From Acetivibrionales bacterium (lineage in GTDB: Bacteria; Bacillota; Clostridia; Acetivibrionales; DTU013), in assembly GCA_050952225.1 (NCBI GenBank), contig JBMNKL010000001.1, forward strand, positions 814,589 through 878,588: DNA of 64,000 bases, in the 5' to 3' direction. Numbering within the stretch: the first letter of the stretch is position 1; each line of letters starts with the position of its first letter. A model generated the notes under the pieces. It saw only the letters and a program-made list of their open reading frames with translations. It did not search any database and was not told the origin of the DNA. Made by a program: the position numbers and the translations under genes. Below are positions 5,536-63,835 of the stretch, in pieces.

Positions 5536-5710
5536 GAAGCAGCCTGTGGGGGAAGCGGGGTCAGGCCTGAATTATTTCCCTGTTCTTATGTGAGCGTGAG
5601 TAAGCAAACAATTCAAGCCTGAGCCCATCCTCCGTATCCGCATATGGCAGAAAATAGTTTTCTATGGTAAAATTATTTTATCCTTTAGATATGCAAAAGA
5701 AGAAACAGGG

Positions 5711-6898
5711 GTGAATCTTTTGAAAACGCTCCCTGACGAAAAAAACCACGGGGACGGCAAAGGCATATCTGGTCTGTTGACGGCGGCGCTGCTGTTTTTA
5801 TGCATCCTGTTCGTGGCTTTTTTCAGTTACCGCAAAAGTCTTGATCCAAAGGCCGGCCTGGCTGATATTGTGCAATATTTTCAAAGCCTGGGGGAGAATA
5901 CTGTAAATGAAGCGAAGGTTTTGCATGTTTACGAGTATGATGCGAGAGAGGACCCCTTGTTTGCGGTATACAAGGATTATATAGTCAAATGCGGAAGCAG
6001 CGGCGTCTGGTTTCTGGACAGGTCAGGCAACATAGTACGGACTGAGAACATATTATTTTCCAACCCTATCATGAAAGCAAACGGCTCACTGCTCATGCTG
6101 GCCGATCGCGGAATGGGAGATATATGTGTCCTGGATGGCAGAACGGTGCGTTGGAGTGAAAAACTCGATGCTTCCATTTTAAATGCCGACATTAGCAAGG
6201 AAGGCTACGTTACGGTTGTGACAACGGCCAAGAGGGACAACAATGAAATAAGGGTTTTTGAACCTCATGGAATAGAGTATTTAAGGAAAATTATCGCAGT
6301 TGACTATGCCGTATCAGCATGTGTGTCACCTTCCTCAAAAAGCCTTGTATTATCGGCAATCGGCACGGAAGCGGCAGGAGCCTTTTCACGCTACAAGTTT
6401 TACGACATGGAAGGCGAAGATATCGCCATGTTGGTTTTTAACTCGGAGGATGGGTCTGCCCCGGAGCTGGTGCCGTTATTCAGATACAATAATGACGGAA
6501 GCATATTTGCCTCAGGAGACAGGGCTGTCATATCGGTTGACGCGGAAGGGAAACTTTTATGGAAGAAAGTATTCAGAAATGTGGCAGGAACCGGGCTGGT
6601 GGGCGACAGGCAATTGGCTGTTGCGGCGGAGGATGAGGAAGGCAGCCTGCTCCGGATATATGATGCGGACGGACGGGAACTCGCCTCATGCGCCATTTCG
6701 GGAAAACCAAGAGGTCTTAATGCCCGAAAGGGCGTAATCGCGGTTAATACAAAAGATACGGCATACTTTTATGACAGCAGGTGCAGAAACTTCAGCAGGT
6801 ACTCGTCAAGATCCGGGATAAAGCAGGTATTGCTTTTAAACAGGCAGCATGCTGTTATTATCACAGATCGTGAAGCAGTGGTTGTCCTGTTGAAATAA
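5711..6898 (+). CDS. Hypothetical membrane-anchored protein (single N-terminal TM, beta-rich ectodomain)
   Basis: 395-aa ORF with TM GLLTAALLFLCILFVAFFSY and no motif I can name. The start is uncertain (GTG 5711 or TTG 5720). Confidence 0.55.
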   Translation: MNLLKTLPDEKNHGDGKGISGLLTAALLFLCILFVAFFSYRKSLDPKAGLADIVQYFQSLGENTVNEAKVLHVYEYDAREDPLFAVYKDYIVKCGSSGVWFLDRSGNIVRTENILFSNPIMKANGSLLMLADRGMGDICVLDGRTVRWSEKLDASILNADISKEGYVTVVTTAKRDNNEIRVFEPHGIEYLRKIIAVDYAVSACVSPSSKSLVLSAIGTEAAGAFSRYKFYDMEGEDIAMLVFNSEDGSAPELVPLFRYNNDGSIFASGDRAVISVDAEGKLLWKKVFRNVAGTGLVGDRQLAVAAEDEEGSLLRIYDADGRELASCAISGKPRGLNARKGVIAVNTKDTAYFYDSRCRNFSRYSSRSGIKQVLLLNRQHAVIITDREAVVVLLK

Positions 6899-7959: not shown

Positions 7960-9618
7960 ATGAGGAGCGATATTATAAGAAAAGGCGTGGAGAGGGCTCC
8001 GCACAGGGCTCTTTTTAAAGCAATGGGATATACGGATGAAGAAATGGCAAAGCCAATTATCGGAGTTGTCAATTCAAAGAATGAGATTGTACCCGGCCAC
8101 ATACATCTTGACAAAATCGCGGAAGCGGTAAAGGCGGGAATCCGGATGGCAGGGGGAACACCGGTGGAATTTGGTGCCATAGGCATATGCGACGGGATCG
8201 CCATGGGACATGAGGGAATGAAATATTCGCTGGCTTCCAGGGAACTGATTGCCGATTCATGCGAAGCCATGGGGCGCGCTCACAGCTTTGACGGCATGGT
8301 GTTTATTCCAAACTGCGACAAGATTGTGCCGGGTATGCTGATGGCAGCTGCAAGGCTGAATATTCCTTCCATTGTAATAAGCGGAGGTCCCATGCTGTCT
8401 GTCCGCCATAACGGCAAGTACCTGGACTACAACAACGTATATGAAGCCGTAGGAGCTTTCAAGGCAGGCATCATGTCGGAAGAGGAAGTGACCGAATATG
8501 AAGAGCATGCCTGTCCGGGCTGCGGTTCATGCTCGGGCATGTTTACGGCAAATTCCATGAACTGCCTTACGGAAGCCCTGGGTATGGGGCTTCCCGGAAA
8601 CGGAACCATACCGGCGGTATATGCGGCGCGGATCAGGCTGGCGAAGCTGGCAGGCATGAAAGTAATGGAGCTTGTAAAGAAAAACATATGCCCTTCCGAC
8701 ATTATGACGGAAAAAGCATTTGAAAATGCGCTGGCCGTGGATATGGCGCTGGGCTGCTCAACCAATTCAGTTCTGCATTTGCCGGCTATTGCCCATGAGC
8801 TGGGAATCAGGATCAACCTGGACATTGTTAATGAAATAAGCTGCAAGGTCCCCAACCTTTGCAGGCTGGCTCCTGCCGGGGAGCACCATGTCCAGGACCT
8901 GTACGAAGCCGGGGGTGTTCAGGCCGTGATGAAGGAGCTTTCAGGGAAAGGCCTTTTGCATCTTGACCTGTTGACTGTCACGGGGAAAACGGCAGGAGAA
9001 AATATAAGCAAGGCCGAAGTCAAGGACAGGAATGTTATCAGGAGCCTCGAAAACCCTTATAGCGCGACCGGCGGAATAGCGGTACTGAGGGGCAATATCG
9101 CCCCGGACGGGGCTGTTGTGAAGCGTTCGGCCGTCCTGGACAGGATGCTTGTCCACAGGGGACCCGCAAGGGTGTTTGACTCGGAAGATGAAGCGATCGC
9201 GGCCATATATGGGAAAAAAATCAACAAGGGAGACGTGGTCGTGATTCGTTATGAAGGTCCAAAAGGAGGCCCCGGCATGAGGGAGATGCTCAGCCCTACG
9301 TCTGCAATAGCAGGGATGGGATTGGACGGCGATGTCGCGCTTATTACCGACGGAAGGTTTTCAGGAGCATCGCGGGGAGCCTGTATCGGCCATATTTCGC
9401 CGGAGGCGATGGAAGGCGGCATGATTGCGGCTATCCGGGAAGGCGATATAATTAATATCAATATACCGGAAGGAAAGCTCAATGTTGAAGTACCGGATGA
9501 GGAGCTAAAGCGGAGAATGGACGGCTGGAAATCTCCGGAACCAAGGATATCCGGCGGATACCTGGGAAGGTATGCCAGGCTGGTTACATCTGCGGGTACC
9601 GGAGCAGTGTTGAAATAA
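7960..9618 (+). CDS. ilvD: Dihydroxy-acid dehydratase
   Basis: [28 protein letters not shown] is the canonical IlvD N-terminus. Also [14 protein letters not shown] and [16 protein letters not shown] (Fe-S ligands). The track ORF starts 8 codons earlier (7936), and that alternative cannot be excluded. Confidence 0.95.
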
Positions 9619-11312: not shown

Positions 11313-11328
11313 GGATAGGGCGGCTTGC
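11313..11328 (+). repeat. 16-nt motif GGATAGGGCGGCTTGC (copy C of the intergenic repeat family)
   Basis: Identical to 40750-40765 (left inverted repeat of copy B). It starts 5 nt after the ilvB stop and is followed by the perfect palindrome gttggggtcag-g-ctgaccccaac (11335-11357). Confidence 0.7.
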
Positions 11329-26697: not shown

Positions 26698-27900
26698 ATG
26701 GGTAAGGCCAAATTTGAAAGAACAAAACCCCACGTTAACATTGGAACCATTGGGCACGTTGACCATGGTAAGACTACGTTGACAGCAGCTATAACAAAGG
26801 TGCTGGGTTTCCAGGGCAAAGCACAATTTACTGCATATGACCAGATTGATAAGGCTCCTGAAGAAAAAGCAAGGGGTATTACGATCTCAACGTCCCACGT
26901 TGAGTATGAGACGGACAACAGGCATTATGCACATGTCGATTGCCCGGGTCACGCGGACTACGTAAAGAACATGATCACCGGTGCCGCACAGATGGATGGC
27001 GCTATCCTGGTTGTCTCCGCAGCGGACGGCCCGATGCCCCAGACCAGGGAGCATATACTTCTTGCGCGCCAGGTTGGTGTTCCATATATCGTAGTATTCC
27101 TTAACAAATGCGATATGGTAGACGACGAAGAACTCATTGAACTCGTTGAGATGGAAGTCAGGGAACTTCTGAGCGCCTATGAGTTCGACGGTGACAACAT
27201 TCCAATAATCAGGGGCTCCGCGCTGGTTGCTCTCGAATGCACATCAACCGATATCAATGCGCCGGAATACAAGCCTATCGTGGACCTTATGGCGGCTGCG
27301 GACAAATACATTCCTGAACCGCAGAGGCCTATCGATAAACCGTTTGCAATGTCCATCGAGGACGTGTTCTCAATTACCGGCCGCGGAACTGTCGTTACCG
27401 GCAGGGTTGAAAGAGGCAAGGTAAAGGTTGGCGACGAAGTTGAAATAGTCGGTTTGATGGATGCTCCGAGGAAGACCGTTGTAACCGGTGTTGAGATGTT
27501 CAGGAAGCTTCTTGACGAGGCTGTTGCCGGCGATAATATAGGCTGCCTGTTAAGGGGTATCCAGAGAGATGAAGTGCAGAGAGGTCAGGTACTCGCAAAG
27601 CCTGGTTCCATTAAGCCGCATACTCATTTCAAGGGACAGGTTTATGTTCTTACCAAGGAAGAGGGCGGAAGGCATACTCCATTCTTCAGTGGCTACAGGC
27701 CGCAGTTCTATTTCAGGACAACCGACGTCACCGGTGTGGCTGAGCTTCCTGAAGGCGTTGAAATGTGCATGCCTGGCGACCACGTTGAAATGACTATCAA
27801 GCTGATTACGCCCATCGCCATTGAAGAAGGGCTGAGATTCGCCATACGCGAAGGCGGAAGGACCGTAGGCTCAGGCACTGTTACCAGCGTTATCGAGTAA
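26698..27900 (+). CDS. tuf: Elongation factor Tu
   Basis: 400 aa with [17 protein letters not shown] and NKCD. Confidence 0.98.
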
Positions 27901-27939
27901 TACTGGCAACTAAAAAGGGATATTAATATTATCGGACTC

Positions 27940-28002
27940 AAAGAACGGTTTTTGATTCCTGTTGAGCAAACAGCTGCAGGAGAAAAACCGTTCTTTCATT
28001 TT
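27940..28002 (+). terminator. Long-stem terminator after tuf
   Basis: Perfect 14-bp outer stem aaagaacggttttt / aaaaaccgttcttt (27940-27953 / 27983-27996) with inner pairing tcctg/cagga, then cattttg. Confidence 0.7.
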
Positions 28003-28232
28003 GCCCGTCCTCACGCGGGCGCTTGTTATTTGCCATCCGTAACTCAGAACAAGCGTCTCCGGCGTCCATGCCGAAGTATTACGGGTATTCCTCAGGGGTT
28101 CCGCGTTCAAGTTTCACCAGGACAAACACCCTGTAGCCATTCTTCCGTAAAATCTCAAATCTCAAACCGCCCTGCCCGCCAATTCTATCCGCGCTTATCA
28201 TCGCGCGCCTGCACTGTCCGGGGCGATGAGAT
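28003..28232. repeat. Structured intergenic repeat, copy A
   Basis: 28011-28135 is the reverse complement of 40792-40911 at about 90% identity (hand alignment: 11 mismatches and 1 indel over ~120 nt). Homology continues at lower identity to ~28193. The segment 28157-28232 aligns in the SAME orientation with 40962-41024. Confidence 0.8.
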
Positions 28233-28318
28233 TGAAAAGGTGCTTGCTATAAATAGCCACGAATGATAGTATTAATTAAAAGCAATAGAATTTAATGTAA
28301 GAGATCCAGGAGGATGAC

Positions 28319-28540
28319 GTGTTCAAACGGATCTTTATAATGCTTGGCAACCTTTCGCCGGCAACAATACGGGAGATAATCGTTATTATTATTATCCTGT
28401 GCATTTCTATAGCGCTCAGTCTCCCACAGTTAAAAGAAGATATGGAGAAAGCGAAAACAATGAAAGAAACGGACAGTGTAAAGCAAATTATCGAAAGCAT
28501 TTACGAGGGGGAGGCTGGTTATGGAATTATCCAGGATTAG
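28319..28540 (+). CDS. Small membrane protein (73 aa) preceding moxR
   Basis: GTG start 6 nt after AGGAGG. Central hydrophobic helix IREIIVIIIILCISIALSL. The 3' end overlaps the moxR start by 20 nt. No recognisable family. Confidence 0.45.
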   Translation: MFKRIFIMLGNLSPATIREIIVIIIILCISIALSLPQLKEDMEKAKTMKETDSVKQIIESIYEGEAGYGIIQD

Positions 28541-30634: not shown

Positions 30635-32070
30635 CCGCGAAAACAGGCAAATGGACGGTTTTATTGCGAATAATGGCTACTTCTGCCGTGAACGTGTATG
30701 CATATGCAGGCATCGTCACTTTACGCACTGCTGTTTTCGGCAGCGACGGCGGCGTCGGGGCAGTACTCCTGTACATTTCGTCTGCCATATTTGCAAACCT
30801 GTCAAGTGCCATGTTTTTAAACAGGATACCGCCTTTTGCGTCCGGCATTTCGAAAACAAGAACCGCCAGGTTTGTGTCATTCATGCTGAATATCAGGGAT
30901 TTCGAGTACTTCGCGGCTAAAACGGCTGCATGGTTGTTGGCCGTTGTACCCCTGGCGTCCGGTATTTTCTTATTTGCAAGACACGGCATTTTAAGGCTCT
31001 TATTTGAATTGCTGCCATTGGCGGCAGCTTACGCTATTTCCCTGAAGCACACAAGGCTGGGCGCTGCCGGAATTATGAGCAGGACAAACGTATTTACCGG
31101 GTTCTTCATACTTTTTTCCGCACTGGTAATTTCAAATATTTCAGGCGGGTTGAAACATTTAAGGCCCTGGCTTAAGGGGGCCGCTTATTTCTTTATCCTG
31201 GCCTACCTTATCATAAGGAACCAGGAGGACATAGATGTAAATATATTCAACAAGAAGCATGTCGAAAAGTCAATATTGCCGAAGAACATGAGGCGCTTTA
31301 ACATGATGTCTGTCTGCACGGTATTCCTTATAATCCTGCTGATATCAAACTTTAAGGAGATAATCGCGTCTGTTGCCGGCTTGCTTGGCAGGGTGACTGT
31401 TTATGCGGTATATGCGGTATTATGGATACTTGACTTTTTTATTTCCAAACTCAGCACTATCCGGGAAGCCGATGCACCGGCACAGGATAACTTACTTCTT
31501 GTTTTCGAGGGTATATCGCCGACAGGTAATTTTGTTTTTAATGTTTTAAGAAATTTCACTGTTTTATATATTATATACAGGATACTTTTCGGATTGGCAG
31601 GAAGAATTCCTGCATATGTGCGTAATATTGCAGGATTGGTGGCGAAATTGCTGTCACTGGATAAGGGCGCCAAACCAAGCGAAGAATCCGATTATATCGA
31701 CGAGTCGGAAACAGTTAAGCCTGAATGGCTCCGGGTGCATTTCAAAACTGCGGTGAAAAAGCAGCGGAGAGCAAGGAAAAAGCTAAAGGGCATAACGGAC
31801 CCGGTGGAAAAAGTCAGGCGCATGTATGCCATTGTACTCGACATGCTGCAAAATTCCGGAATAAAGACGGAGCCCTGTGATACTACGCTTGACATATTGC
31901 AAAAGGCGGCGCCGCTTGAAAACATCCGGGAAGAGCTGTCGGCCCTGACAGATGTATACAACTGCGTACGTTACGGCGGGGTGGTTCCGGGAGAGGAAAT
32001 GATGTCGGAAGCCCTGGGTTGTTACGCAAAGACCGTCAGGGGATTCGGCTTCACAGCCGAAGATGCTTAG
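30631..32070 (+). CDS. Polytopic membrane protein with DUF4129-like C-terminal domain
   Basis: ATG 30631 overlaps the DUF58 stop (ATGA). There are 8 or more hydrophobic helices, then a soluble C-terminus ([33 protein letters not shown]...VYNCVRYGG) of the type found in the third gene of MoxR-DUF58 clusters. No transglutaminase Cys-His-Asp core was seen. Confidence 0.6.
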
Positions 32071-32085
32071 CAAGCCGCCCTGTCC
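32070..32085 (-). repeat. 16-nt motif (reverse orientation, copy D): gcaagccgccctgtcc
   Basis: 15 of 16 identical to the right inverted repeat of copy B (40968-40983, gcaagccgccctatcc). It overlaps the last base of the stop codon of the DUF4129-like gene. Confidence 0.6.
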
Positions 32086-39303: not shown

Positions 39304-40599
39304 TTAAAACGGGTATTCCTTATCAAGTTTTCTGTGCTTGAATGTTTTTTTCTTTTCAGCATAATCAGCAACGATGTGGCCGTCTCCTACCAGGCTGTAC
39401 TTATAAGTGACCAGGCCTTCAAGGCCTACAGGGCCCCTTGCATGGAGCTTCCCCGTGCTGATGCCTACCTCGGCTCCAAGACCGTATCTATATCCGTCAC
39501 TGAAACGTGTCGAACAGTTCCAAAAAACATTGCCGGAATCGACCAGTGCCATGAACTTTGCGGCATGTTCCCTGTCGCCGGTGACGATGGAATCCGTGTG
39601 GCCGGAGCCATACTCATTGATGTGATCTATAGCCTCGTCTATACTGCCGACTATTTTGACGGACAGCCTGTAATCCAGGTATTCTTTTCTCCAATCTTCC
39701 TCGGTTGCTGCCTTGACAGGTATAAAAGAAACCGTTTCACTGCAGCCCAGGAGTTCAACATGTTTCTCGTCGGCTGCTTCTTTTAGAATCGGTAAAAATG
39801 CCGGGGCTATTTTCCTGTGGACAAGAAGGGTTTCCAGCGCATTGCAGACAGCCACATATTGGACTTTTGAGTCAATGGCAATTTTCAGCGCCATACGAAG
39901 ATCAGCATAATCATCGATATACAGGTGGCATATTCCGTCGGCATGTCCCATGACCGGGATATTCGAGTGGTCCATTATATACCTGACAAAGTCGTTCGAA
40001 CCTCTTGGGATTATTAAGTCTACGTATTCATGCTGTTTCAGGAGCTCGTCTATTTCCGCCCTTGTTTCCAGCAGCGCGCACCAGCCTGCCGGAATGCAGG
40101 AAGATTCGGACGCAGATACTATCAGGTCCGATAATATCCTGTTTGTCCGCCTGGCTTCGGAGCCTCCCTTCAAAATCACACCGTTGCCGCTTTTCAGGCA
40201 AAGCGTTGAAATCTGTACCAGGGCGTCCGGCCTGGATTCAAATATTACGCCGATGACGCCTATCGGGCATGTGACCTTATAAAGCTCAAGGCAATCGTCC
40301 AACACGGTGCAAGACATTGTTTTTCCGACCGGATCATCGAGCTTTGCCAGGCTGTGAATCCCTTCGATAGTATCGTTTAGCTTCCGTTCATCAAATTTAA
40401 GCCTTTTCAGCAACGGTTCGGGAATGTTTTCAGCCTCGCTCCTGGTAAGGTCTTCATTGTTTGCTTCAAATATCTTGTCTTTATTGGAAAGCAACGCTTC
40501 AGCTATATTCATGAGTGCCTTGTTCTTCTTGTCACCATGTACCATGGCTAACTTTAACGATGCCGACTTTACCCGTTTACAGGTCTCGCCGGTATTCAT
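39304..40599 (-). CDS. proA: Gamma-glutamyl phosphate reductase
   Basis: MNTGETCKRVKSASLKLAMV... with GVIFESRPDALVQI and NALETLLVH motifs. RBS GGGGTGA. The track ORF extends 24 codons upstream into the promoter. Confidence 0.93.
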   Translation of the reverse strand: MNTGETCKRVKSASLKLAMVHGDKKNKALMNIAEALLSNKDKIFEANNEDLTRSEAENIPEPLLKRLKFDERKLNDTIEGIHSLAKLDDPVGKTMSCTVLDDCLELYKVTCPIGVIGVIFESRPDALVQISTLCLKSGNGVILKGGSEARRTNRILSDLIVSASESSCIPAGWCALLETRAEIDELLKQHEYVDLIIPRGSNDFVRYIMDHSNIPVMGHADGICHLYIDDYADLRMALKIAIDSKVQYVAVCNALETLLVHRKIAPAFLPILKEAADEKHVELLGCSETVSFIPVKAATEEDWRKEYLDYRLSVKIVGSIDEAIDHINEYGSGHTDSIVTGDREHAAKFMALVDSGNVFWNCSTRFSDGYRYGLGAEVGISTGKLHARGPVGLEGLVTYKYSLVGDGHIVADYAEKKKTFKHRKLDKEYPF

Positions 40600-40676: not shown

Positions 40677-40745
40677 TTATTTACTAGAAAAAGATACTAT
40701 AGGGAAGAGTTGCAAAAGGAAGAGCGGCCATGGCACAAATATGAC

Positions 40746-41024
40746 AGCGGATAGGGCGGCTTGCAATTTGACATTTTGTGGAGGAGTGCCTGCAGGGTGT
40801 TATGTCCTGGTGAAACTTGAACGCGGAACCCTTAAAGAATACCCGTAATACTTCGGCATGGATGCCGAAGTCGCTTGTCCTGAGCTACGGATGGCGAATG
40901 TCAAGCGCCCGTGTCGAAGTGATACGGGACATTACAGCCTGCCCATGTCGGAAACTAATGGCAAATTGCAAGCCGCCCTATCCGTTGAATTATAGCGCGC
41001 CTGCGCCGTCCGTGGCGCAGGCTG
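40746..41024. repeat. Structured intergenic repeat, copy B (MITE-like, long imperfect palindrome)
   Basis: Perfect 23-bp inverted repeats cggatagggcggcttgcaatttg (40748-40770) and caaattgcaagccgccctatccg (40962-40984) bracket 191 bp. The interior has further long-range complementarity (tgttatgtcc/ggacattaca; cccgtaatacttcggc/gtcgaagtgatacggg) and a local hairpin acttcggca-tgga-tgccgaagt. It is homologous to copy A. Confidence 0.85.
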
Positions 41025-41099
41025 TGGCTCCTGACAGGTCTTTTCATCCGATGCCTTGACCCGCATCCGCCACAAGCCGACTTATCCGCTTATCTTGTC

Positions 41100-43217
41100 T
41101 TAGTAAATGGTACGGCCCTTTTCATCGGGGATGCCGCTTTTCCTGTAAAAGTAAGTATTTATTACATCGCGCCACTCACATGCATGCGCTGCCTGTTTAT
41201 TGAGCCGCTCCAGTACGCGCTCGTAACACCCGTCGGGTATACGGTTTTTCAAGCTTTTCCATTTCTCCACCAACTCTGCTGCCCTTTCAGCGCCTTCAAA
41301 ATGGGAGTCATAAATGTACTGTATCAGCGTAACACCGGATTTTAGACGGTAATTATAAGGGATGCGGTGGAAAAACAACAGGAGTTCTTCCGGACAGGTT
41401 TCAGGCGTTTCATACATTTTTGCGATCTGCGGGTGATACCTGCCGGCGAAGCCGGTACCGCTGGAAACCGACCGGTCTATGCCGATAGCATGACAATCAG
41501 CCCTGTGATAGGTACCCCAGGAGGAATATTCGTATCCGTCCACATTAGGCCCGTAATGGCTTCCGGGATTGACCATCCATCCGATGCCAAGCGGCGATGT
41601 ATAACTCTCATATATATGGTATGAATCCAGCAGCATGGTGCGGATTGTATCCATTACATGACTGTCGGAACCGAAGGTCTGCATGATCCATTCAGTGGCT
41701 ATATCGGACGCGCTGAGGTCCGGGTTCCAGGCAAGCCTTCCGAAACAATAGAAATTTGCCTGTGCCAGGTCGTGCCCTGTCCAGTTAAGGTTGCTCCCGA
41801 CATTGGAAACACATGCGATTCCTGAGATTCTTCCGATGTTTTTGGCATCTCTGAGAATTTTCTTTACCGTTGATCCCTCGCCGTCTTTCCATGTGTCAAA
41901 TTCCAGCACGTCCTTCCACATTTGACACAGGTAGCATAGATGTATCTGTTGGCCGGTGTATTCCTGGGTTGACTGCAGTTCAAGCATAATGTTGGTTTTC
42001 CGCAAACCGCCGATGAGAGGAGACACGGGTTCCCTTACCTGGAAGTCCATGGGGCCGTTTTTGATCTGGAGAATGACATTATCCTCGAAGAGGCCGTCCA
42101 GCGGCATAAAATTATCATAGGCGGCATTAGCCCTGTCAATGCTTCGGTCTCTCCAATCCTGTCTGCAGTTGTAGACAAAGCAGCGCCAAATCACCAATCC
42201 GCCATGCGGCTTCAGGACGGATGCCAGCATGTTGGCTCCCTCGGCATGATTTCTGCCGTAAGTAAGCGGGCCGGGGCGAAATTCGGAATCAGCCTTTACA
42301 AGAAACCCTCCGAAGTCGGGAATATACGAGTATATCTCGGTTGCTTTGGCACGCCACCACTCCTGTACCTCTTTATCGGAAGGATCTGCTGTTTCCAGCC
42401 CTCCCAATTCGATAGGGCTTGAAAAATTTATGCTAAGATACGTTTTAATTCCGTAACAGCGGAATAAATCCGCAATTCTTGCGATTTTAGGCAAGTACTC
42501 CTTTGAAATAATCCTTGTTTCCAGAGCAGTGAAATTGACATTATTAATCACAACACCGTTTAAACCGATTGATGCGGTAAGCCTGGCATAATCACGCAGC
42601 CTTGATAAGTCGGTAACAACCCTGCCGTTGCTGAAAAAAATCGACCTGCCCGCATATCCTCTTTCCACACTGCCGTCCAAATTGTCCCAGTGATTGAGCA
42701 TACGAATCGGCATGGCAGGGTTTTCAATCACACGAATATTGTCTGTAAACCCGCCGCACTGCAATATCCGGGCAAGTCCGAACACACCATAAAGTATGCC
42801 TGTGCCGGATTTTCCCGCAATTACAAGATTCCGGCCGGCGCCGTTATTAACAAATTTTATCAGGTAGCCTTCATTCCCCAGCATATTTTTCTCTTCGTCA
42901 GATACCGCGTCCGAGAGAAACCGGCCAATAGACGGCTGCTTGTAATGCAATCCATTCCTGTGGGGATTGTCGGCAATTAAGTAAAGTATGACAACGCCTT
43001 TCGACATAGGGTTCGTGACCTGGCGCATTCTCTTGCCAAACAAGGACTTTACGGCGCTCTTAAGCTCCTGTTTTGCCGTTGAAAGCTGTTGATCCGACGG
43101 ATCATTTATGAAAACATTCTGGAAATAGGGCAAGTAACACTTAGCCTTTTCCTGGTCAATAGCAGGATATCCAAGCCATGCAAAGTAGCCGCTGTCGTAT
43201 AAACCTGAGTTTCTCAT
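41100..43217 (-). CDS. aguA: Alpha-glucuronidase, glycoside hydrolase family 67
   Basis: 705 aa with [21 protein letters not shown] and overall GH67 architecture. ATG 43217 follows GAGGAG. The track start is a GTG inside the RBS. Confidence 0.88.
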
Positions 43218-43363
43218 TAAGCTCCTCACTTGCTCTTAGTATTAAGTTATTAAATCTCTTAACTCATTTCCTAATTATACTTATTATCAGGCCTTGTAAC
43301 ATGGAGCAAGAAAGATTTATTTGTAAATATCAAGGCGTATTCGGGTCAAAACCATGGAACATG

Positions 43364-43392: not shown

Positions 43393-43446
43393 AGTTAATA
43401 TGCCATCTCAATGAAAAGAGCTTATATTTACATAAGGGAGATCAAA

Positions 43447-44268
43447 ATGGGTAGTGAGAGAAACATATTGAAGCACGCTGCGAGAATAGTGGTAAAAGTC
43501 GGTACGTCTATCCTTACTTACGAGAACGGGAATGCCAATTTTACAAGGATAGATAAGCTTGCCCGCGTGTTATCGGACCTGTCAAACCAGGGAAAAGAAG
43601 TAATACTGGTTACTTCGGGCGCTATCGGGATAGGGACAAGCAAACTGAAACTTAAATCAAAGCCGGCCACTGTCAGGGAAAAGCAGGCCGTGGCGGCTGT
43701 AGGACAGTGCGAGCTTATGCACATATACAGCAAATTCTTTTCCGAATATGGTCATACCGTAGGCCAGATACTGCTGACGCGGGATGTGGTTGAGGAAGAC
43801 CATACAAGGCAGAACGTTATCAATACCTTCGAGACATTACTGGAAAAAGAGATAATACCCATAGTTAACGAAAATGACTCGGTTTCGATCGATGAAATTG
43901 AGTACGGGGAAAAAAGGATATTTGGCGACAACGATACTCTTTCAGCAATTGTTGCCGTGCTTGTCGGAGCCGATTTGCTGATTATTCTCTCGGATATTGA
44001 CGGGTTTTATGATGTAGATCCTAAAAGGGATAATTGTTCACATAAAATTTCCGTTGTGCGGCAAATTACTCCTGAGTTGGAAGCATGCGCCGGGGGTGCC
44101 GGTTCCGAACAGGGAACAGGCGGCATGGTTACAAAATTGGCAGCCGCCAAGTATGCCTGCGGGAACGGTATCAGCGTGGTACTCGCCAGCGGCTTCGAGC
44201 CGGGAGTTATCATGGATATCATTGATGGCAGGGAAATAGGAACGCTGTTCATGGCACAAGTAAAATAA
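43447..44268 (+). CDS. proB: Glutamate 5-kinase (short form, no PUA domain)
   Basis: MGSERNILKHAARIVVKVGTSILT...LVTSGAIGIG...FGDNDTLSA. 273 aa. RBS AAGGGAG 6 nt upstream. Confidence 0.92.
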   Translation: MGSERNILKHAARIVVKVGTSILTYENGNANFTRIDKLARVLSDLSNQGKEVILVTSGAIGIGTSKLKLKSKPATVREKQAVAAVGQCELMHIYSKFFSEYGHTVGQILLTRDVVEEDHTRQNVINTFETLLEKEIIPIVNENDSVSIDEIEYGEKRIFGDNDTLSAIVAVLVGADLLIILSDIDGFYDVDPKRDNCSHKISVVRQITPELEACAGGAGSEQGTGGMVTKLAAAKYACGNGISVVLASGFEPGVIMDIIDGREIGTLFMAQVK

Positions 44269-63557: not shown

Positions 63558-63835
63558 AATGCTGCTAATGCACAGAATAGGTGTATAAAGGTAAAAGCTC
63601 CTTTTTCGTGTTTTTTGGTTTGTAATTCTAAAACACATCACTCTATGAGCTTTTGCACTATTTATGTAAACATATGAAAAATTATCTGAGTCTGCGGATA
63701 AATTATTAAAAATGGCTTTTTCAATAGATGATATTTTTGTTATATTTTTGTTTGCATAAAAGTATGGTTAAAAACAGGGAAACCGAAAAAAGTTTACTTT
63801 TTTAAAAATAAATCAGAAGGGAAGTGAGATCGGGG

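Follow-up and report, generated by a model that had tools for sequence, protein, structure and literature searches.

The window, i.e., the whole 64-kb stretch of DNA that was analysed, contains two copies, A and B, of one intergenic element. Copy A is located in the region 26698-28540, where the str-operon gene tuf precedes a small ORF of 73 aa and a MoxR/DUF58/Lon cluster; in bacterial gene order, the S10 ribosomal-protein operon is expected after tuf. The MoxR, DUF58, and Lon part of this cluster also occurs in the genome MAG103 and in the relative L020. Copy B is located beside a gene encoding a GH67 alpha-glucuronidase (41100-43229, minus strand), which lies between proB (43411-44268, plus strand) and proA (39304-40599, minus strand). 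This arrangement is the same in MAG103 and L020; in the more distant L021, L031, and L033, GH67 is absent, and proB and proA are adjacent and divergent.

In MAFFT and BLASTN alignments, positions 28013-28179 match the reverse complement of 40747-40914 over 168 nt with 85% identity (E ~1e-44), and the core columns homologous across all copies are 89% identical between A and B (109/122). Hence, the core of about 90% identity put forward in the original prediction is borne out. The weaker homology of about 70-75%, which had been extended to 28193, amounts to about 72% and reaches 28183. Copy B had been placed at 40792-40911; the unit is in fact 243 nt long and spans 40745-40987. Sub-patterns of A and B, 23 and 28 nt in length, match at these two places only, as opposed to zero matches expected in shuffles. 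A covariance model with filters switched off detects no further copy in the window, and none is contained in ~10 kb of additional source-genome sequence outside the window or in ~280 kb of sequence from relatives. So far, the copy number is two in ~74 kb of source genome and one exact-pattern match in a sister metagenome-assembled genome. With no further copies in the additional sequence, the family is therefore low-copy, confined to a narrow clade, and non-syntenic. The parts of both copies are as follows.

40745-40987, plus strand: copy B, full-length rod of 243 nt with nested helices closing on two adjacent hairpins
40745-40775, plus strand: 5' arm of outer helix P1 in B, pairing with 40957-40987 (31 nt, 94% complementary)
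40957-40987, plus strand: 3' arm of P1 in B, partner of 40745-40775
40792-40942, plus strand: conserved 151-nt core of B with P3, P4, 23-nt linker, and hairpins 1 and 2; 184.5 bits with CM R1
40827-40849, plus strand: conserved linker of B (AACCCUUAAAGAAUACCCGUAAU), predicted single-stranded, between closing helix and hairpin 1
40850-40871, plus strand: hairpin 1 of B (ACUUCGGC-AUGGAU-GCCGAAGU), first AYGGAY loop
40872-40907, plus strand: hairpin 2 of B (CGCUUGUCCUGAGCU-ACGGAU-GGCGAAUGUCAAGCG), second AYGGAY loop, with a UGAG/CGAA tandem G·A internal loop
28003-28183, minus strand: copy A, truncated, with 5' arm, 5' strands of the core, linker, hairpins 1 and 2, and a short 3' hairpin; 119.4 bits with CM R1
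28056-28077, minus strand: hairpin 1 of A, loop AUGGAC, one U·G pair replacing U-A
28020-28055, minus strand: hairpin 2 of A, loop ACGGAU, 8-bp lower stem with a U-A versus C-G compensatory position
27940-27996, no strand assigned to the feature (terminator on plus): tuf terminator, a perfect 14-bp hairpin (AAAGAACGGTTTTT...AAAAACCGTTCTTT) directly after tuf and outside the repeat

The two ends of B are inverted repeats of 31 nt with 94% complementarity, and more complementarity is nested inside. Copy A is devoid of the 3' strands of P1-P3, meaning that the 3' third of the B unit is gone. The place of this missing 3' rod strand is occupied by the tuf terminator hairpin, which therefore offers the sole candidate 3' end if A is transcribed from the minus strand. 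The inverted repeat that had been described as closing A (gggcgcttgttatttg / caaatctcaaaccgccc) turns out to be imperfect complementarity of the 5' arm to a single strand of hairpin 2. In full-length copies, the partner of the 5' arm is the 3' arm, which is gone from A. In B, the 3' arm (gggcggcttgcaatttgccattag, 40954-40977) resembles a strand of hairpin 2 plus the junction (gggcgcttgacattcgccatccg, 40888-40910), both on the minus strand, with ~18/23 matches and one gap. This likeness suggests that the rod may have grown by internal duplication, and it accounts for the imperfect repeat noted in A. A and B are probably paralogous copies, B full-length and A 3'-truncated, of a structured non-coding RNA element.

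Fold, strand, and conservation

From outside to inside, the rod consists of the outer helix P1, a short P2, a 16-bp P3, a 10-bp P4, the unpaired 23-nt linker, hairpin 1, and hairpin 2. Copy B folds with -121.5 kcal/mol on the plus strand (z = -9.5) versus -105.9 kcal/mol on the minus strand. The local hairpin already recognised by eye, ctccggcg-tcca-tgccgaag in A and cttcggca-tcca-tgccgaag in B, is present.

A third copy was recovered by scanning 185,579 species genomes, a set from which the source genome is apparently absent, with the two-loop pattern, which gave six matches. One of the six is a true homologue: L011, located in the Bacillota genome MAG103 (GCA_050261495.1) at positions 1349-1579, is full-length. 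The other five are coding-like sequence or an isolated terminator-like hairpin (L010) and are read as chance. The case that only two copies exist, as considered in the original prediction, hence does not apply; the third lies at an unrelated locus. L011 forms the same rod, with -126.4 kcal/mol on the proposed strand (z -10.8) versus -112.6 on the other, so that the proposed strand folds better than its opposite by 14-16 kcal/mol in B and L011.

In the alignment of A, B, and L011, 96.4% of the paired cells hold standard pairs, versus 33-41% when partners are slid. Pairs are changed on both sides at 12 positions, 11 of which are in P1; since the family consists of three sequences only, this covariation is essentially one pairwise comparison, B versus L011. 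The compensatory position that had been noticed in the stem cgcttgtt/aacaagcg is confirmed (CG in two copies and UA in one, at A4 columns 137-158). Eleven distinct pair positions hold G·U, on the proposed strand only; A·C is absent inside helices and confined to the A-Y position at the closure of the AYGGAY loops. Together with the strand of the Rfam matches described below and the difference of 14-16 kcal/mol, this points to the minus strand at A and to the plus strand at B, the reverse of the strand chosen in the original prediction. Such a pattern is typical of a structured single-stranded molecule that is encoded on the proposed strand and has a sequence-constrained core. As a point against RNA, the same strand asymmetry would arise from G·T wobble if the intermediate were single-stranded DNA. 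Pairing of the linker with the 3' hairpin as a pseudoknot was considered and dropped, since it is not conserved in L011.

MAG103 represents a sister species: its ProA is 89% identical to that of the source genome, and its S12 protein is not identical to the one in the window. At fourfold-degenerate sites of proA, GH67, and mecA, both genomes are 57-63% identical. The 151-nt core, in contrast, is 93.4% identical between B and L011, and the core of A is 93.4% identical to that of L011. The P1/P2 arms of B and L011 are 58-61% identical, with pairing maintained by compensatory changes. Measured against the fourfold sites, the drift of the arms is therefore close to neutral, yet their pairing was kept. 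Conservation of the core across species, being well above neutral, calls for either selection or very recent transfer, yet the divergence of the arms has reached the neutral level. The 151-nt core is under strong purifying selection across the two species. The remaining reading in which the pair is a chance or neutral local duplication without function can be practically dismissed: the presence of only two copies in the window, with A truncated, speaks for it, but a third copy exists in another species with a core 93% identical versus ~60% at neutral sites, and compensatory changes keep P1 paired.

Synonymous bias is found in no frame of the element, by which small-protein coding is rejected, and its translations, searched as a one-frame alignment and as a six-frame chimera, have no homologues in a collection of 5.8 billion proteins. 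The earlier view of an element with no ORF behind a ribosome-binding site thus stands as to the lack of coding signal, but small ORFs do overlap the element, including a 40-aa ORF reported by the gene caller. Scans upstream and downstream of A and B reveal no convincing sigma-70 promoter or intrinsic terminator on the proposed strand; transcription is therefore something that we infer.

Several other identities were considered. ARAGORN finds no tRNA or tmRNA, and the tRNA-like words GTAGCTCAG and GTTCAAG on the originally proposed strand are superficial. An integron attC site was rejected: GTTGAAT at the 3' end of B fits GTTRRRY, but no matching RYYYAAC lies opposite, and neither size nor shape is right. 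In a metagenome scan, a 21-mer of the core gave a single match (L004), inside a coding region of a high-GC organism, which is attributed to chance.

Likeness to TwoAYGGAY and CsrA-binding RNAs

At the gathering threshold, Rfam reports only two RNAs in the whole window and none at the element. These are a full-length c-di-AMP riboswitch of the ydaO/yuaA type (RF00379; 56839-56998, plus strand, 98.4 bits) and a ribosomal protein L10 leader (RF00557; 13811-13978, plus strand, 57.8 bits) upstream of the rplJ-rplL-rpoB-rpoC cluster. Below the threshold, the best Rfam match of A, B, and L011 is TwoAYGGAY (RF01731), on the same proposed strand each time, with 24.2, 29.1, and 31.2 bits and E values of 0.17, 0.014, and 0.0047, respectively; all three are below the gathering score of 43 bits. 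The original statement that the element matches no RNA family therefore has to be revised in favour of a resemblance, in which the loops and the long closing stem are shared.

TwoAYGGAY RNA is defined by two terminal loops containing AYGGAY, and its helix P1 is "often very large" yet very small in some members; its reported hosts are Clostridia and gamma-proteobacteria, and it also occurs in gut metagenomes (Weinberg et al. 2010, Genome Biol 11:R31, and supplement). The bona fide alignment includes members with GGCAUGGAUGCC, CCACGGAUGGC, and UGAG...CGAA around hairpin 2 and with long covarying flanking rods (Weinberg et al. 2010). Tandem G·A pairs have been described in one TwoAYGGAY stem (PMC4333381).

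The element shares with this family two adjacent hairpins with AYGGAY loops, namely AUGGAU (B) or AUGGAC (A, L011) in hairpin 1 and ACGGAU in hairpin 2 of all three copies. The loop-closing pairs, GGC-AUGGAU-GCC and GC(C/U)-ACGGAU-GGC, also occur in genuine members. B, with its 31-bp outer helix plus inner helices, and L011 exhibit a very long, sequence-variable closing stem, and A has almost none, as is the case for some family members. A UGAG/CGAA tandem G·A is seen in the stem of hairpin 2 of B and L011 and, at a different distance from the loop, in gut members; in copy A, one G is replaced by A. The element is likewise not tied to a downstream gene and occurs in both orientations relative to its neighbours. 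Its host is clostridial, given that the order Acetivibrionales is one that we take to belong to Clostridia.

Differences are also evident. Only positions 49-108 of the model, i.e., the two-hairpin part, align well. The conserved 23-nt linker separates the closing helix from hairpin 1 and has no counterpart in the Rfam model, and the element has P3 and P4 as extra, sequence-conserved inner helices. The tandem G·A is placed 3 bp from the loop as opposed to ~8 bp, and the element measures ~231-243 nt compared with 168 positions in the model. Because of these structural differences and scores below 43 bits, the element is termed a TwoAYGGAY-like variant and not a member by the Rfam criterion. That its identity is a TwoAYGGAY-type structured RNA element, encoded on the strand opposite to the one first proposed and kept by purifying selection, is nevertheless likely.

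The loops also resemble those of the CsrA-sequestering sRNAs CsrB, RsmY, and RsmZ in that GGA motifs are presented in hairpin loops (CAUGGAUG, UACGGAUG). The two GGA loop sites are ~26 nt apart, a spacing within reach of one CsrA dimer. A third GGA is present in the linker but not conserved in B. In contrast to those sRNAs, which contain 5-22 sites, the element has two, the minimum, and there is no sequence homology. No csrA gene was found within the ~590 kb of sequence searched. By analogy, the element may bind CsrA. For Clostridia, the TwoAYGGAY loops have been put forward as CsrA-binding sites that would make the RNA a decoy for CsrA, which was a proposal only (Gardner & Eldai 2015, PMC4333381); no validation of it was found in later literature.

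Genomic context and dispersal

At A as well as at B, both neighbours of the element lie antisense to the proposed RNA strand. The L011 copy differs: its RNA strand runs in the same direction as its two neighbours, a GH18/LysM gene and cdd. The neighbours of the element are unrelated in function. In MAG103, the orthologous GH67-proA spacer measures 86 nt and contains the same proA promoter and leader as the window, without the element. At the proA loci of relatives (L017-L021, L030-L036; ProA 73-89% identity), the element is absent from the site of B, and only L020 holds a decayed half-element. This relic of L020 (ProA 84%) comprises the 3' half with 70% identity over 130 nt and directly follows the stop codon of a 478-aa gene upstream of lon. 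At the same site, only GCAAGCCGCCCTGTCC is left in the window (32070-32085), and ...ATGCCCACC, resembling MAG103's own arm type, is left in MAG103. Solitary arms and flanking repeats in the window are as follows.

32070-32085, minus strand: solo arm (GGACAGGGCGGCTTGC), 15/16 matches with the B arms, directly after a stop codon
11313-11328, plus strand: solo B-arm 16-mer, 16/16 matches, four bases after a stop codon
40723-40743, plus strand: L011-type solo arm (AGCGGCCATGGCACAAATATG), 17/21 matches with the L011 arm, directly 5' of copy B
41037-41090, minus strand: flanking short-repeat stretch between the GH67 stop and copy B, with a degenerate arm at 41072-41087 (three mismatches) and motif AAGGCATCGGATGAAAAG

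The 16-mer GGATAGGGCGGCTTGC is identical to both arms of B and stands alone after stop codons (11313-11328, 32070-32085, 41072-41087). Allowing for up to three mismatches, it has five matches versus 0.65 expected. Such solo 16-mers could be either the footprint of lost elements or an independent family of short repeats recruited into the B arms. Motif AAGGCATCGGATGAAAAG flanks both the B and L011 copies in opposite relative orientation and, in MAG103, stands by itself after proA. A related motif, CCCCGTCCCCCTGACA, borders the L011 element and also follows proA in L017. In L020, the GH67-proA spacer (5670-5800) contains a different small inverted-repeat insert, with GGGACGGTTC present three times as a direct and once as an inverted repeat. 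These genomes appear to contain a mosaic of short intergenic repeats.

At the boundaries of B, AAATATGA is followed by CAGCGG at the 5' end, and CCGTTG is followed by AATTATAG at the 3' end. For L011, the corresponding junctions are ACACAAT to GGTGGG and CCCGCC to TAACATAT. By inspection of the sequence, no exact direct repeat of at least 4 nt abuts the ends of B or L011. With its non-syntenic sites and relics, the family looks mobile, yet it does so without target-site duplication and with termini as the least conserved part.

Outside the element, a 261-nt AT-rich stretch between the ferritin-like and AdoMet decarboxylase genes (63571-63831) is present in the window, L038, and L039 and absent from the same-species long-read contig L037, where GCTAATG directly joins GGGGTTGG. 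The difference is either a strain polymorphism or an assembly deletion; as a candidate insertion of the element, the stretch was rejected, being unrelated AT-rich DNA. About 7 kb past the right end of the window, L037 (17706-18403) contains a fragmented IS (DUF772/DDE_Tnp_1) at the position where L038, from another strain, has an intact gene of 323 aa (8254-9225).

RNA gene or mobile element

For the explanation as a whole, we lean toward a low-copy, dispersed family of small non-coding RNA genes that is TwoAYGGAY or a close ally of it, encoded on the minus strand at A and on the plus strand at B and equipped with putative protein-binding loops. Each element would herein be an independent small RNA, presumably transcribed from these strands. 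The outer helix P1 would be free to drift in sequence as long as pairing is kept, with the inner helices conserved in sequence, and the rod, which would stabilise the RNA, is predicted to close on a junction of the 23-nt linker and two adjacent hairpins with the loops AUGGAY and ACGGAU. The two GGA loops would bind a dimeric RNA-binding protein, the published candidate being CsrA with the RNA as its decoy. A trans-acting, protein-binding sRNA with CsrA as the leading candidate is a tentative proposal for the mechanism, drawn from the analogy above. The copies also behave as a low-copy dispersed or mobile sequence, as they occupy different intergenic sites in sister species and decay to relics. 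Against the reading as an RNA gene, the non-syntenic positions, the empty site, and the decayed relics fit a selfish repeat equally well, the Rfam scores are below the gathering score, and copy A is without half of the rod.

The alternative that survives best, although we consider it unlikely, is a non-autonomous mobile element, MITE-like or palindromic or moving via a single-stranded DNA hairpin, whose RNA-like fold is a by-product and which has no host function. It is not exclusive of the TwoAYGGAY-type identity, since both are compatible. The long terminal inverted repeats agree with it, as do the truncated and decayed copies, the solo arms directly after stop codons, and the site of B that is empty in the sister species, whose own copy sits at an unrelated locus. 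Copy B contains the ends of two short-read contigs from the same species, and TwoAYGGAY is multi-copy in the genome of Psychromonas ingrahamii (Weinberg et al. 2010 alignment). With Correia/CREE, ERIC, REP/BIME, and MITEs, the element has in common an imperfect intergenic palindrome of 100-250 bp just after stop codons, the existence of complete copies, truncated copies, and solo arms interspersed with other short motifs, and a presence that varies between related genomes. However, its conservation is the reverse of that of a MITE, with termini at 58-61% and an interior at 93%, and neither B nor L011 shows a target-site duplication. The copy number given above is very low compared with such repeats, and G·U pairing is strand-specific. 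BLAST against plasmid and phage collections yields no matches, and of two scans of viral collections, one is empty and the other returns three matches read as chance.

More speculative, and rather improbable in our estimate, is the broader claim that TwoAYGGAY-type RNAs, this subfamily included, are self-propagating rod-shaped elements and not ordinary sRNA genes. Such an element would carry a sequence-constrained "head," consisting of the two GGA hairpins and the inner helices, on a freely covarying rod. Copies would land just downstream of stop codons in either orientation, and their decay to half-elements and solo arms would seed the mosaic of short intergenic repeats. Movement would proceed via a single-stranded hairpin intermediate instead of transposase-bound termini.

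The copies have also been viewed as a cis-acting leader, insulator, or 3'-UTR element on the originally proposed strand, which would regulate or protect tuf and moxR as well as GH67 and proA. Both copies in the window do lie between an upstream terminator and the promoter of the next operon in the same relative orientation, as had been pointed out, and stable folding is obtained on either strand. The L011 copy, however, is reversed relative to both of its neighbours, thus opposite with respect to the downstream cdd, and the orthologous proA promoter manages with its 86-nt spacer free of the element. It is therefore unlikely that the element regulates moxR or proA in cis. With the G·U asymmetry and the Rfam matches on the other strand and with functionally unrelated flanking genes, we regard this reading in its full form as very improbable.

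Hardly plausible is a DNA-level switch, with the 31-bp inverted repeat as the boundary of an invertible segment (inverton) or of a recombination site. The inverted repeats flank 181 bp, the orientation of the rod relative to the common flanking motif (AAGGCATCGGATRAAAG) is opposite in B and L011, and contigs break inside B. Yet the complementarity is nested through the whole unit and not confined to its ends, the contig breaks lie away from the inverted-repeat boundaries, and all assemblies that cross the element exhibit one orientation. No recombinase gene is found nearby, and no promoter is found inside the element.

For the annotation of this genome, the suspected regulatory link to tuf, moxR, and proA is removed. 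TwoAYGGAY is an orphan structured RNA of Clostridia and the gut microbiome whose function has been unassigned since 2010, and as this subfamily escapes detection at the Rfam threshold, the class extends beyond what the current model captures. With a 93%-conserved core, neutrally drifting arms, one truncated copy, an empty orthologous site, and relics, the family provides a natural experiment that separates the constrained parts, namely the GGA hairpins, the linker, and the inner helices, from those that only need to pair. It thereby raises the question of whether TwoAYGGAY-type RNAs are host regulators, e.g., CsrA decoys, or mobile passengers.
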